From: an uncultured Streptococcus sp.
GTDB lineage: Bacteria; Bacillota; Bacilli; Lactobacillales; Streptococcaceae
NCBI RefSeq assembly: GCF_963516575.1
Contig: NZ_CAUQCP010000002.1
Location: 8,048-72,047, forward strand
Length of the DNA stretch: 64,000 nucleotides
Reading direction: 5' to 3'
Below the pieces are notes generated by a model. That model ran no database searches. It was not told where the DNA came from and was given only the letters and a program-made list of their open reading frames with translations. The first letter of the stretch is position 1. Each line of letters opens with the position of its first letter. A program made the translations under genes and the position numbers. This document shows positions 30,878-34,195 of the stretch, in pieces.

Positions 30878-30886
30878 TGATATACT
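30878..30886 (+). promoter_or_regulatory. Extended -10 promoter abutting the left inverted repeat
   Basis: TGaTATACT; no convincing -35. Confidence 0.6.
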
Positions 30887-30921
30887 AGCGATAATAAATA
30901 GTTATCGGTAGGAGAGAGATG
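30886..30921 (+). repeat. Left 36-bp inverted repeat (candidate recombination site with RBS and ATG)
   Basis: TAGCGATAATAAATAGTTATCGGTAGGAGAGAGATG; exact reverse complement at 33208-33243. Confidence 0.97.
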
Positions 30922-31634
30922 TGAGAGAATTTCAATATTTCATAAGTTATTCAAGAGATATTTACTACGAATTTGTAAATAATCTGAATAATACGTTAAA
31001 TGAAATAGGATTAAAAACCTGGATTGACAAATTTGAAATTAACATTGGAGATGAAATAATTGATAATCTATATACTGTACTCGATAAAAGTGCTGATTAT
31101 TATGGAATTATTTTTATATTCGATGAAACATTCTTTAACAAAGCATGGTGTATAAAAGAGCTAGATTATGCGATGAAGAAAAGGATTCCTTTTTTTCCAA
31201 TATTGTATAAAATAAAAAAAGAAGATATTCCTAATGAATATACTTTCTTAAAAAATTATAATTTATTAACGGTATCATCGTTAAAAGAAACTGATTATAT
31301 CGTAGATCGCTTTATATTGCTGCACTTGAACAATATTATTTGCAGAAATATTTCTAATTTTTCAATTGACAGTTATGTTGGTAATTTTTTATTAGAACAA
31401 ATTCGACATACTACTGTAAATAGTATTGATGCTATTTTTATCCTAGATAACTTCTCTCAATATTTGAGAAAACAAAAACGGTTGGGGAATTTTAAACTAA
31501 CACATGAAATCTTGTTTTGTATCGCAATAACTAGACTATTAAAAGAACGTTTATTTAGGAAAGATTTCCAAGGGGAGTACCATTTTAAAATATTGGAAAT
31601 CATCCAAGAAATATATATTAAGACGTTTCTATAA
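30921..31634 (+). CDS. TIR-domain protein (ThsB-like signalling enzyme) with C-terminal extension
   Basis: YFISYS, LKTWID..I.IGD, WCIKEL catalytic Glu motif, FFPILY; GTG start. Confidence 0.85.
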   Translation: MREFQYFISYSRDIYYEFVNNLNNTLNEIGLKTWIDKFEINIGDEIIDNLYTVLDKSADYYGIIFIFDETFFNKAWCIKELDYAMKKRIPFFPILYKIKKEDIPNEYTFLKNYNLLTVSSLKETDYIVDRFILLHLNNIICRNISNFSIDSYVGNFLLEQIRHTTVNSIDAIFILDNFSQYLRKQKRLGNFKLTHEILFCIAITRLLKERLFRKDFQGEYHFKILEIIQEIYIKTFL

Positions 31635-31675
31635 ATGTTCAAAATAGCCTTAGAGAACATTAAACATATAAAACT

Positions 31676-31726
31676 AAAAAACAGAGATTCACCGAATTGA
31701 AATTAAATGGTGAGTCTTCTGTTTTT
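31676..31726. terminator. Bidirectional terminator between convergent TIR and SIR2-SLOG genes
   Basis: AAAAACAGAGATTCACC...GGTGAGTCTTCTGTTTTT. Confidence 0.7.
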
Positions 31727-31761
31727 ATTAAAGTAAAAAGCCTTTATATACTGATTTATTA

Positions 31762-33210
31762 TTAAAGTTTATCCATGATGTAAGCATCTCTGATGTGCTT
31801 AATGCAATCAATAATAGTTTGAGATAAAATTTCAGGATCTTTTTCTATCAGTAGCTTATCTAGAAAAGGAGTGAGATAAGAATATTTATCAATTTCAGAT
31901 AAAAGTGTTTGGTATACTTCTAAAGAGCTCCAACCAGTTGAACCTACGGGAATAATAAATCTATTTTGCTTTATAGCCCTGTCAAAATCTTCTAGTACTC
32001 CCTTGGATTTAGATAAAGTTCCGTCATAGTATTGATTTCCAAAGACAAATATAACTATACCTGCTTCTGATATCATATTATCTTGGAATCTTTTCTTTGC
32101 CGAACTATCAATATGTTTATCGCTACCTTTAATTAATGGGAGAGTTTTAATTTTTAGATATTTCGAAATATCAAGATTTTTATCATTAATAGCGGTCATT
32201 ACACCATTAATCACCTGTGGTCCTACACCTTCTATATTACCGTTACCTACTATAATTTCATTAGCAATTAATTTATATCCTAAAAGATATAGGAACTCAG
32301 TAGCACTATCTTCATCCCATTCTCCATAATTTCTACAACTTCCAGCAATAAATACACTATTAGTTAAACATAACTTATAAGATTGATTAAATAGTTCATC
32401 AATCTCATTATAATCTTCAATCAAAATAGTATGAATACCATATCTTTTTAAATCATTTATTTCGTGCTCTTGTTTTATCTTTCCGTATTCTAATTCACTT
32501 TCAGGGTCTTGGGAATTTTCAAACATATCAATGGTCAAATTTTTCCTAAAACAATAGTGCATCCTAATATTTTCTCCGATTAATAGTCTAATTTTGCTTA
32601 GAATTTGCTGAATATCTGGATCATTTAAACTATATCCTACAAATACAAATGTTTTACTAATCAGATCTCCGCGGAGTGTTTGAATAAAAAGTTTGTGACT
32701 CTTATCAAAACTCTCGTAATCATCACGAGTCAATATTGCCTCATAGGGTCTAGAAATATCTCCATGAAATTTATAGACAGTCGCATCAATATTTGGAGGG
32801 GTAATTGACAAATCATTATTATCAATCTTGATGTCTACACGTTTTCCAGCTTTCTTCAAATTATCTTCAATTAAGTGGTCATAATTAGTTGTCCAAAAAG
32901 TTTCAATAGGCATGCTCGTTAACAGTGTTAGCAAATTATTATCTTTAGAGTCTTTTGTAAATTCTTGTATTAATTTTTGTGAAATCTGATTTTTTGATTG
33001 TGCAGAATTTTTGTAATATTGTGCAACTGAAATTAAATCATACTCTTTATCAATATTTAGTCCAATCGAATCAGAAAATTGCCGTAATAATTCTTTCCAG
33101 TTTACATAACCTGAGGGAACAGAAAGTCCTGCACCAGCAAAAATTGCTGCATTATTTTCTAACATTGCCGCACTAAAATCAGAAATAAATTGTTTTTTTA
33201 GTTTTTTCAT
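31762..33210 (-). CDS. thsA: SIR2-SLOG NADase effector, Thoeris ThsA-like
   Basis: IFAGAGLS, TTNYD, YKFHGD, FVGYSLNDPD (SIR2); VFIAGS, GVGPQVING, IFVFGN, IIPVGSTG (SLOG); 482 aa. Confidence 0.88.
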   Translation of the reverse strand: MKKLKKQFISDFSAAMLENNAAIFAGAGLSVPSGYVNWKELLRQFSDSIGLNIDKEYDLISVAQYYKNSAQSKNQISQKLIQEFTKDSKDNNLLTLLTSMPIETFWTTNYDHLIEDNLKKAGKRVDIKIDNNDLSITPPNIDATVYKFHGDISRPYEAILTRDDYESFDKSHKLFIQTLRGDLISKTFVFVGYSLNDPDIQQILSKIRLLIGENIRMHYCFRKNLTIDMFENSQDPESELEYGKIKQEHEINDLKRYGIHTILIEDYNEIDELFNQSYKLCLTNSVFIAGSCRNYGEWDEDSATEFLYLLGYKLIANEIIVGNGNIEGVGPQVINGVMTAINDKNLDISKYLKIKTLPLIKGSDKHIDSSAKKRFQDNMISEAGIVIFVFGNQYYDGTLSKSKGVLEDFDRAIKQNRFIIPVGSTGWSSLEVYQTLLSEIDKYSYLTPFLDKLLIEKDPEILSQTIIDCIKHIRDAYIMDKL

Positions 33211-33243
33211 CTCTCTCCTACCGATAACTATTTATTATCGCTA
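33208..33243 (-). repeat. Right 36-bp inverted repeat (provides RBS and ATG of thsA-like gene)
   Basis: CATCTCTCTCCTACCGATAACTATTTATTATCGCTA, exact reverse complement of 30886-30921. Confidence 0.97.
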
Positions 33244-33298
33244 TACAAAGCACCCAAATAGGTTTATAATAGCATGATTATTGATAAAGGAGATTTTT

Positions 33299-34195
33299 AT
33301 GGATTATAAACTTATTTCTACTTACTTAGATTATTGCAAAACTCATAAGCGTTTGAGTTCGCACACGATTCGTGCTTATAAGAATGATCTTATGCAATTT
33401 TATAACTCAGACTATGATAATGTCGAATCCTATATAGAACAGTTGACACAATCTAACATAAAAACGAATACATTAAGAAGAAAAATTGCTTGTATGAAGG
33501 TGTTTTATAACTATCTAAAATACCAGAACATAATTGAAGAGAATCCCTTCAATCAATTGCGCTTTCAATTTAGAACTGAAAAAGTATTGCCTAAAACGAT
33601 TCCGTATGACATTCTGAAAAATATTTTTCTATATTTAGAACAGAAAGTAGTTCTATCTAAAACCGATTATCAAAAACAAAAAGCCGAAAGAAATCTACTA
33701 ATTATTTCCCTTTTACTTTCGACAGGGATCAGAATTTCTGAACTTTGCCACATTCATCTCAAAGATATTAATCTTTCCAACAAGACACTCCATATTATAG
33801 GAAAGGGGAAGAAAGAACGTATCCTATTTTTAGGAGATCAAAAAACATTCAATTTATTAGAAACATATACAAATAAAACAAGAAATGAATCAAATGATTT
33901 CTTGTTCCCAGGGAAACATTCACTTAAACCATTATCAGAGCAAAGTGTACGTTTAGTAATAAAGAGAATCGTTGAACAAAATAACTTTTCTAGAACTATT
34001 ACACCGCATATGTTTAGACATAGTTTTGCGACAATGCTTCTAGATAGTGATGTAGATATTCGATACATTCAACAAATTCTTGGACATAGTTCTATATCAA
34101 TCACACAAATCTATACTCACGTATCTCATTCAAAACAAAAAGAAATACTTAGTTCTTTTAATCCTGTATCAGCGATTCATTCTGATAAAAAATGA
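33299..34195 (+). CDS. Tyrosine recombinase (XerC/D-like), candidate invertase
   Basis: HTIRAYKNDL; intact catalytic set TGIRISEL (R), GKGKKER (K), PHMFRHS (HxxR), LGH, TQIYTH (Y); AAGGAG RBS. Confidence 0.93.
   Translation: MDYKLISTYLDYCKTHKRLSSHTIRAYKNDLMQFYNSDYDNVESYIEQLTQSNIKTNTLRRKIACMKVFYNYLKYQNIIEENPFNQLRFQFRTEKVLPKTIPYDILKNIFLYLEQKVVLSKTDYQKQKAERNLLIISLLLSTGIRISELCHIHLKDINLSNKTLHIIGKGKKERILFLGDQKTFNLLETYTNKTRNESNDFLFPGKHSLKPLSEQSVRLVIKRIVEQNNFSRTITPHMFRHSFATMLLDSDVDIRYIQQILGHSSISITQIYTHVSHSKQKEILSSFNPVSAIHSDKK

Follow-up and report, generated by a model that had tools for sequence, protein, structure and literature searches.

The 64,000-nucleotide (nt) window analysed here, from an uncultured Streptococcus sp. 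(GCF_963516575.1, contig NZ_CAUQCP010000002.1, positions 8,048-72,047), carries a Thoeris-type pair of defence genes, encoding a TIR-domain protein and the effector ThsA, on a cassette that almost certainly inverts between two perfect inverted repeats lying beside a tyrosine recombinase gene. This locus is not a one-off but a member of a genus-wide family of recombination docks with 13 or more types of cargo, a setting that an earlier reading of the window from its letters alone (herein the sequence-only reading) had missed; the finding is real and broader than that reading saw, a programmed inversion with an unusual exchange property. The explanation we favor, and consider probable, is that a promoter-less TIR-ThsA cassette sits in a conserved dock where inversion shifts the ratio of the two proteins and where one cassette can also be exchanged for another.

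The elements of the locus, in window coordinates, are these:

30878-30886, plus strand: inward-facing extended -10 promoter candidate TGaTATACT, with base 1 of the left arm as its last T
30886-30921, plus strand: left arm of the inverted repeat, 36 nt, a 100% match to the right arm
30886-30894, plus strand: putative outer half-site of the left arm, TAGCGATAA, delimited from the internal palindrome
30895-30901, plus strand: putative central region of the left arm, TAAATAG, delimited in the same way
30902-30910, plus strand: putative inner half-site of the left arm, TTATCGGTA, followed by a GGAG ribosome-binding site and the TIR start region
30921-31634, plus strand: gene for a ThsB-like TIR-domain protein of 237 amino acids (aa), whose GTG start uses the last base of the left arm
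31677-31726, both strands: hairpin between the convergent genes, a candidate bidirectional terminator preceded by an A-run and followed by a T-run
31762-33210, minus strand: thsA, for a 482-aa NADase effector with SIR2 and SLOG/STALD domains, whose ATG occupies the final three bases of the right arm
33208-33243, minus strand: right arm, with the same core site in the minus-strand reading
33242-33270, plus strand: candidate recombinase promoter, TATACA and TATAAT separated by 17 nt, with 10 of 12 consensus matches, the first hexamer overlapping the outer end of the right arm
33266-33274, minus strand: putative second inward-facing extended -10, TGCTATTAT, 23 nt outside the right arm
33299-34195, plus strand: gene for an Xer-like tyrosine recombinase of 298 aa, starting 55 nt outside the right arm

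The two arms are complementary at all 36 positions and lie 2286 nt apart, the runner-up inverted pair within 29000-36000 being 32 nt long at 75%, and the 36-mer has two sites in the whole genome, both of them the window arms. Each arm is built from two 9-nt half-sites in inverted order around an asymmetric 7-nt center (9 + 7 + 9), followed by a ribosome-binding site. The segment of about 2.3 kilobases (kb) between the arms holds exactly two genes, which are convergent; because each arm carries the leader, and the TIR GTG and the thsA ATG fall at the arm ends, both genes share one leader. The hairpin between them has a minimum free energy of -25.9 kcal/mol on the plus strand and -23.1 kcal/mol on the minus strand (z = -3.98 and -2.54 against 200 shuffles). 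The anatomy described by the sequence-only reading (perfect 36-bp inverted repeats, a TIR gene on the plus strand converging on a ThsA-like gene on the minus strand, a bidirectional terminator between them and a catalytically intact tyrosine recombinase 55 bp outside the right repeat) was borne out in each respect.

The identity of the effector is clear from its full length (PADLOC ThsA model, 5.8e-151 over 2-474 of 478), from its N-terminal SIR2_2 (8.6e-29) and C-terminal STALD/SLOG (1.5e-40) Pfam domains and from alignment to solved ThsA structures (8wc0, 8.6e-101; 6lhx, 1.2e-93), in which the TTNYD and HGD motifs are aligned. Its partner matches Pfam TIR_2 (1.5e-13) and retains the catalytic glutamate of the W-x-x-x-E motif when aligned to AbTIR (5.6e-09); its matches to the PADLOC ThsB models are weak (5e-08 and 1e-05), its best match is PDC-S66 (9.5e-17) and its C-terminal region of about 130 aa has no family match. 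The pair has the components by which type I Thoeris is recognized, namely a ThsA with SIR2 and SLOG domains and an adjacent TIR-domain ThsB, and is predicted to protect against phage through a signal made by the TIR protein and depletion of NAD+.

The recombinase belongs to Pfam Phage_integrase (3.9e-43). The Arg-Lys-His-Arg-His-Tyr residues have established roles in tyrosine recombinases, and alignment to XerD (1a0p, 1.6e-29) places all six (Arg, Lys, His-x-x-Arg, His and Tyr) at the expected positions. It falls below the curated cut-offs for XerC (220.1 vs. 335.15 bits), XerD (207.3 vs. 329.6 bits), XerS (116.6 vs. 267 bits) and the integron integrase (103.6 vs. 265 bits), and is hence a member of none of these families.

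To place the locus within the genus, 401 genomes were searched with a 29-nt core of the arm, allowing up to 3 mismatches. The core was found in 70 of the 401 genomes and a reversed-pattern control in none; matches nearly always came in pairs, a forward copy and a reverse one separated by 1.7-4.3 kb. The module set used throughout consists of 63 modules with paired arms from 56 genomes; 13 further genomes have unpaired arms at contig ends, five of which were examined separately together with extra junction contigs from assembly G322. All 63 modules are convergent, with one gene starting at each arm, and in 61 of them both gene starts fall no more than 14 nt from arm position 29 (some values that appear as -16 are an artefact of the start-codon rule used); the exceptions, L080 and L101, have shortened genes. 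Of the 63, 59 have a recombinase homologue that begins 55-56 nt outside one arm, the other four being cut by contig ends with their recombinase-side flank kept. Two modules look like locked, decaying ones: in both L024 (genome G018) and L111 (G067) the recombinase gene is broken into two tblastn pieces; the repeat of L024 is moreover degraded (88%) and its membrane-protein gene split, and the cargo of L111 is fragmented, with its ATP-grasp gene in three pieces. Genomes without a module (L008 at 1501-1629, and also L009, L010 and L011) retain a 129-nt piece that matches the 3' end of the recombinase gene at 84-87% identity; this piece, which in L008 lies within no open frame of 90 aa or more, looks like a scar left by a lost dock.

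Scanned for an exact pattern, the genomes of all species returned at least 155 stretches, and the hosts among the matches listed include S. mitis, S. oralis, S. infantis, S. parasanguinis, S. cristatus, S. pseudopneumoniae and others, one S. pneumoniae strain, one Granulicatella with a proper recombinase-side flank and four single matches in unrelated taxa. The dock is also found on S. salivarius megaplasmids (164-190 kb), where identity to the window is 94-97% in the right arm and recombinase and the annotation extends to a tyrosine-type recombinase beside an aminotransferase-fold gene and a TPR gene and nothing more, and in a record labelled S. equinus. No sign of a phage-borne dock was seen in IMG/VR, where a 21-nt core had no exact match, or in phage records, where the dock had no megablast match. 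In L284 (NZ_CP018188.1, 23799-36770) the dock adjoins pezA/pezT and a transposase gene, and in L024 (875-2629 and 6563-7723) and L025 (genome G014, 812-2566) it has conjugative-element-type genes on its flanks, judged from their translations only: those for a primase-like protein of the toprim type and for a fragmentary large helicase-type protein.

The genome of the window itself has a second module on another contig (L022, 2945-5969), with a 42-nt perfect repeat, the center TAAATTG and a recombinase 97% identical to that of the window, beside an unrelated cargo of a polyprenyl-synthase-like gene and a 330-aa membrane protein; a glutamate dehydrogenase lies upstream of this dock. The different centers, TAAATTG and TAAATAG, would keep the two docks from recombining with one another. 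In other two-dock genomes (G093, G151 and G265) the docks share one and the same center.

With orientation set by the side on which the recombinase lies, 12 of the 13 cargo types occur in both orientations, and the type seen in a single orientation has two members only. The sequence-only reading had proposed that the segment inverts and had suggested comparing its orientation across related genomes; the comparison upholds the proposal for the Thoeris cargo itself, which is split 3 vs. 3, the TIR gene standing beside the left flank in the window, L026 and L088 and the ThsA gene in L080, L084 and L095. Some pairs of modules differ by an exact flip: L059 and L069 are identical in the left flank (400/400), the recombinase (894/894) and the distal flank (400/400), and their cargoes are identical only as reverse complements (1838/1838), an exact-flip pattern that recurs between L063 and L105. 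Mixtures of both orientations also appear within single assemblies. All four flank-to-gene junctions (left and right with gene A and gene B) are present in G304, where two of them are contigs of 115 nt; two modules of G322 are accompanied by additional junction contigs, and in G109 one gene start is joined to both flanks. In CAJNCO, an assembly whose cassette forms a 3406-nt contig of its own with its ends exactly at the arms (k-mer coverage 55.9), a 131-nt junction contig has a coverage of 30.4, about half of that.

Since the arms do hold the ribosome-binding site and start region of both genes, the repeats could also be read as the duplicated leader or operator of two co-regulated genes, with the two orientations arising from independent acquisitions and no recombination at all. 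This reading is contradicted by the exact flips between flanks of 100% identity, by the four junctions in one assembly and by the 12 cargo types found both ways, and we regard it as barely credible.

The arms themselves hint at where the exchange would take place. Tyrosine recombinases require identical central regions in partner sites, and across arm positions 5-21 not one of the 63 modules shows a difference between its own two arms, as expected for a recombinase core site. Position 15, within this stretch, nevertheless varies among modules (center TAAATAG in 40, TAAATTG in 22 and TTAATAG in 1), so that its free assortment would leave about 29 of the 63 mismatched, a figure calculated from the frequencies and a contrast that related genomes inflate. 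Outside the core the arms of a module do differ, at positions 3-4 in 8 and 11 modules and at positions 22-24 in 3-5.

RecA-dependent recombination between the short repeats might alternatively make the flips, leaving the recombinase with another job, such as integration. In many modules the identity of the two arms extends well past the core, to as much as 42 nt, suggesting gene conversion, and excerpts of one study of the pneumococcal spnIII locus report both that part of the hsdS shuffling persists without the recombinase CreX and, contrary to this reading, that loss of recA had no significant effect on that shuffling (PMC6620402). The repeats here are merely 29-42 nt long, the strictly arm-matched stretch is a 17-nt core with palindromic half-sites whose neighboring positions are free to differ, and the recombinase sits at a fixed distance of 55 nt in every complete module. 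A RecA route is accordingly very improbable, and the flip is very probably catalysed by the adjacent recombinase at the core site; the indirect evidence for dependence on it is its fixed adjacency and the decay of repeat or cargo where it is broken (L024, L111).

Several observations weigh against an inversion of the window cassette. L026, its nearest relative with the same cargo (cargo 99.4%, recombinase 94%), shares the orientation of the window, Thoeris copies in the flipped state come from more distant docks, and the assemblies with mixed junctions could in principle represent mixtures of strains. Reads gave no help at the locus: among three RNA runs with the same species label, X21 had 1 read on it, X22 had 0 and X24 had 102, all of them within 30334-30667, in the neighboring choline-binding gene, at 90-95% likeness, these being strains without the locus. 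The Logan contigs of run X1, the DNA run that best covers the locus, are built from 31-letter words, too short to span 36 nt, and end inside the repeat (30291-30921 and 30892-33237). Summed contig depth in the same run is about 24-26 over the cassette and left flank and 400-1000 over the recombinase and the downstream transporter gene (33173-35000), where many base differences also fall, so that a second, more abundant relative is seemingly present in it.

The 63 modules were clustered by cargo into 13 types and compared with known defence systems through PADLOC, nine of the types having no significant match to its models:

TIR + ThsA, as in the window: PADLOC Thoeris
Second TIR type + ThsA: PADLOC Thoeris
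ATP-grasp enzyme + large unassigned protein A (about 766 aa): no PADLOC match
ATP-grasp enzyme + large unassigned protein B (about 780 aa): no PADLOC match
ATP-grasp enzyme + large unassigned protein C (756 aa): no PADLOC match
SHMT-like enzyme + STAND/TPR-type protein, version one: no PADLOC match
SHMT-like enzyme + STAND/TPR-type protein, version two: no PADLOC match beyond one marginal one (2.6e-4)
TPR-S protein + 190-aa protein: no PADLOC match beyond one marginal TIR-effector match (3.8e-4)
TPR-S/190-aa pair + EACC1-type caspase + ThsB-like TIR: PADLOC caspase and ThsB-like
Polyprenyl synthase + membrane protein: no PADLOC match
Glycosyltransferase + 1014-aa protein: no PADLOC match
Aminotransferase + pentapeptide-repeat protein: no PADLOC match; weak NCBIfam likeness, below cut-off, to the Hailong effector HalA
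236-aa + 329-aa pair without a Pfam match: no PADLOC match beyond one marginal one (3e-4)

Cargo and dock have separate histories. The Thoeris cargo of the window is 99.2-99.5% identical, as a reverse complement, to those of L080 and L084, beside recombinases that are 77-81% identical and left flanks that are unrelated, which indicates that cargo has been exchanged between docks. Against L084 the identity is 2089/2100 in mid-cargo and 99-100 of 100 just inside each arm, falling to 43/55 just outside the right arm and 191/245 in the recombinase, with no relation in the left flank. The ATP-grasp and glycosyltransferase pairs behave likewise (cargo 97-98% vs. recombinase 81%), and the left-flank class to which the window belongs holds four cargo types in different genomes. 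Because the recombinase genes are so divergent, both crossovers must have fallen within the arms of about 30-45 nt, and crossovers so confined favor site-specific exchange. Cargo could also be swapped by homologous recombination after natural transformation where flanks are similar, and some arms carry the leader of another cargo: L106 has a glycosyltransferase-type leader on both arms, which points to crossovers outside the central region.

These data bear on a second reading of the dock, in which the sites serve mainly for the holding and swapping of gene pairs that lack promoters, a natural recombinase-mediated cassette exchange; promoters on the two sides would express both genes in either orientation, and the flip would be a by-product of little regulatory meaning. 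Beyond the near-identical cargoes in different docks and the four cargo types behind one left-flank class, it is consistent with docks lying among conjugative-element-like genes and on S. salivarius megaplasmids and with promoter candidates outside both arms. The exchange that it gives precedence to is, however, deduced from comparing loci and could in part reflect the transformation route or the displaced crossovers of L106, and the near-even orientation counts and half-coverage junction contigs imply frequent flipping, which would be odd for a by-product. We consider this reading possible, if somewhat doubtful.

Any effect of inversion on expression depends on the promoters. A motif TGnTAnnnT ending on arm base 1 is present at the left arm in all 63 modules (TGnTATACT in 62 and TGGTATGCT in the 63rd), upstream of which the flanks, read by eye without computed clustering, fall into several visibly unrelated contexts; a motif so constant across unrelated contexts is part of the dock. 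The sequence-only reading had noted an extended -10 abutting the left repeat and no equivalent at the right one, and both statements hold, the equivalent right-hand position reading GCTTTGTA before the arm; it had overlooked that an inward-facing candidate, the TGCTATTAT listed above, exists further out. The same 23-nt spacing holds in 53 of 61 right flanks (TGCTATTAT in 48, TGTTATTTT in 4 and TGATATTAT in 1) and the motif is missing in 8. The further proposal of the sequence-only reading, that flipping places either the sensor or the effector behind a single fixed promoter, therefore stands as regards the invertible segment, whereas strict either/or expression is not established, given the second candidate in 53 of 61 flanks.

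That second candidate has its own difficulties. On the opposite strand, the -10 of the candidate recombinase promoter covers part of the same site, and the conservation of the motif may simply reflect that -10; the overlap may instead mean that the inward and recombinase promoters compete. A general promoter scan returned 18 sites vs. 25.3 expected from shuffles, with promoters of the extended -10-only kind unscored, so that the candidate recombinase promoter counts as a match to consensus and no more. Decayed cargo genes, taken as a proxy for a silent side, showed no side bias (left in L101, L058 and L024; right in L060 and L111).

Three readings of expression follow: a strict toggle, a switch of ratio and expression indifferent to orientation. 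Under the first, only the left promoter would be active and a cell would make either the TIR sensor or the ThsA effector, its immunity being dependent on history or phase-variably off. The invariance of the left extended -10 against the arm in all 63 modules fits such a toggle, as do the absence of the right candidate from 8 of 61 flanks and its explanation as a recombinase promoter, the build of all 63 cassettes as two convergent units each starting at an arm and the terminator-like hairpin between the units of the window. However, type I Thoeris needs signal producer and effector together, and a switch yielding one protein at a time gives no immunity in either state, which argues against the toggle and for a second promoter, as does the inward TGnTAnnnT at a fixed distance in 53 of 61 modules. 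We rate the toggle lowest of the three, because Thoeris needs both proteins at once, and consider it unlikely. That flipping changes the expression of the pair in some manner seems to us reasonably probable.

We hypothesize that the dock consists of a short left end with the extended -10, two inverted copies of the core site and the Xer-like recombinase 55 nt outside the right copy. The recombinase would pair the arms and exchange strands in the central TAAATAG, whereupon the cassette flips; since each arm carries a ribosome-binding site with a start codon right after it, the flip would place the other gene downstream of the left promoter, and its leader would be unchanged. The gene on the recombinase side would be readable only from outside the right arm, via the second, less conserved candidate promoter that overlaps the promoter of the recombinase. 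Each flip would re-pair TIR and ThsA with two unequal outside promoters, and a culture would then hold cells that differ in their TIR:ThsA expression. As the outer ends of the arms touch the left -10 and a hexamer of the recombinase promoter, bound recombinase may also damp transcription, its own included. The sites being inverted rather than direct, the dock's own recombinase cannot excise the cassette, which leaves exchange for another cassette possible. Tentatively, and at more than arm's length from the proposal above, the whole may amount to a natural cassette-exchange dock of oral streptococci, in which the same enzyme and sites both flip a defence pair, making the cells of a population differ in immune-gene expression, and swap it for other pairs arriving on conjugative elements or megaplasmids; it might then be an excision-proof exchange point for immune genes, and the nine unmatched cargo types might be new antiphage systems.

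Just upstream of the cassette, a gene at 28279-29463 (plus strand) encodes a secreted protein in which choline-binding repeats are combined with a caspase-type Peptidase_C14 domain, something unusual in a protein anchored to the cell wall, and is adjoined by an Rgg-type regulator at 27328-28257 (minus strand). The sequence some 100 nt before the left promoter candidate forms a perfect 15-nt palindrome, with arms at 30743-30757 and 30768-30782 and a gap of 10 nt; it could be an operator or a piece of the terminator of the neighboring gene. Genome G001 matches the left neighborhood of the window up to 30748, and the stretch of it that was compared ends short of the right side.

If the proposed logic holds, an abortive-infection system and a dozen other gene pairs would come under programmed DNA inversion, offering a testable route to cell-to-cell differences in a costly form of immunity. 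The modularity of the cargo would mean that defence genes spread from one species to another with no need of the usual phage or transposon vehicles, and the dock may be the natural counterpart of a widely used genome-engineering trick. Gene pairs between these arms are candidate new defence systems, and the arms can be used as a handle with which to search for them. There is also a practical warning, in that short-read assemblies break at these loci, whose annotation goes no further than "tyrosine-type recombinase/integrase" and hypothetical proteins.

In keeping with the sequence-only reading, which knew of no inversion-controlled Thoeris system, we found neither such a system nor such a dock described in the literature searched, though supplementary tables, which lay outside the search, could list such loci; excerpts of the most relevant sources likewise describe no invertible Thoeris or dock (PMC9881135; PMC5903667; PMC6620402; PMC12529663; PMC12324116; bioRxiv 10.64898/2025.12.03.692087).

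Several characterized systems share parts of this design. The window pair resembles the type I Thoeris of Bacillus cereus MSX-D12 in its full-length ThsA (PADLOC 5.8e-151; 6lhx 1.2e-93) and in a neighboring TIR protein with its catalytic glutamate aligned. Thoeris genes are usually co-oriented; here, by contrast, they are convergent, promoter-less and inside an invertible cassette, and the TIR protein is weakly matched to ThsB models (5e-08), its C-terminal 130 aa or so being without a family match. The pneumococcal ivr/cod/spnIII type I restriction locus with its recombinase CreX (PsrA) is alike in genus, in being a defence locus and in its adjacent tyrosine recombinase and inverted repeats, and in that locus inversion generates heterogeneity within the population (PMC6620402; see also PMC4948785 and PMC7096588). 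Its repeats, however, lie inside hsdS and shuffle target-recognition domains, whereas in the dock they are placed at the 5' ends of two complete genes that are unrelated to each other, the entire system flips and the cargo is interchangeable. The invertons of Bacteroides and Clostridioides and fimS of E. coli also combine a tyrosine recombinase, short inverted repeats and phase variation, as described in part of one source (PMC5903667); there the promoter flips and the genes are fixed, whereas here the promoter candidates are fixed and the genes flip.

Other systems resemble the dock in their logic. The G segment of phage Mu and the C segment of P1, inverted by Gin and Cin, hold convergent alternative gene sets whose transcription signals lie outside and whose flip picks the set to be expressed. 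The dock shares this outside-promoter logic, but where Mu and P1 use serine invertases with an enhancer and alternate tail-fibre variants with a constant outside part, it uses a tyrosine recombinase, carries two partners of one system and may have a second outside promoter. Integrons and laboratory recombinase-mediated cassette exchange resemble it in having a tyrosine-recombinase dock, an outside promoter, varied promoter-less cargo and separate histories of cargo and dock. The dock differs from an integron in that its recombinase scores 103.6 bits against the integron integrase cut-off of 265, in lacking attC and attI and in the exchange being deduced by comparison; in their place each cassette has two identical inverted sites, and each dock holds one cassette.

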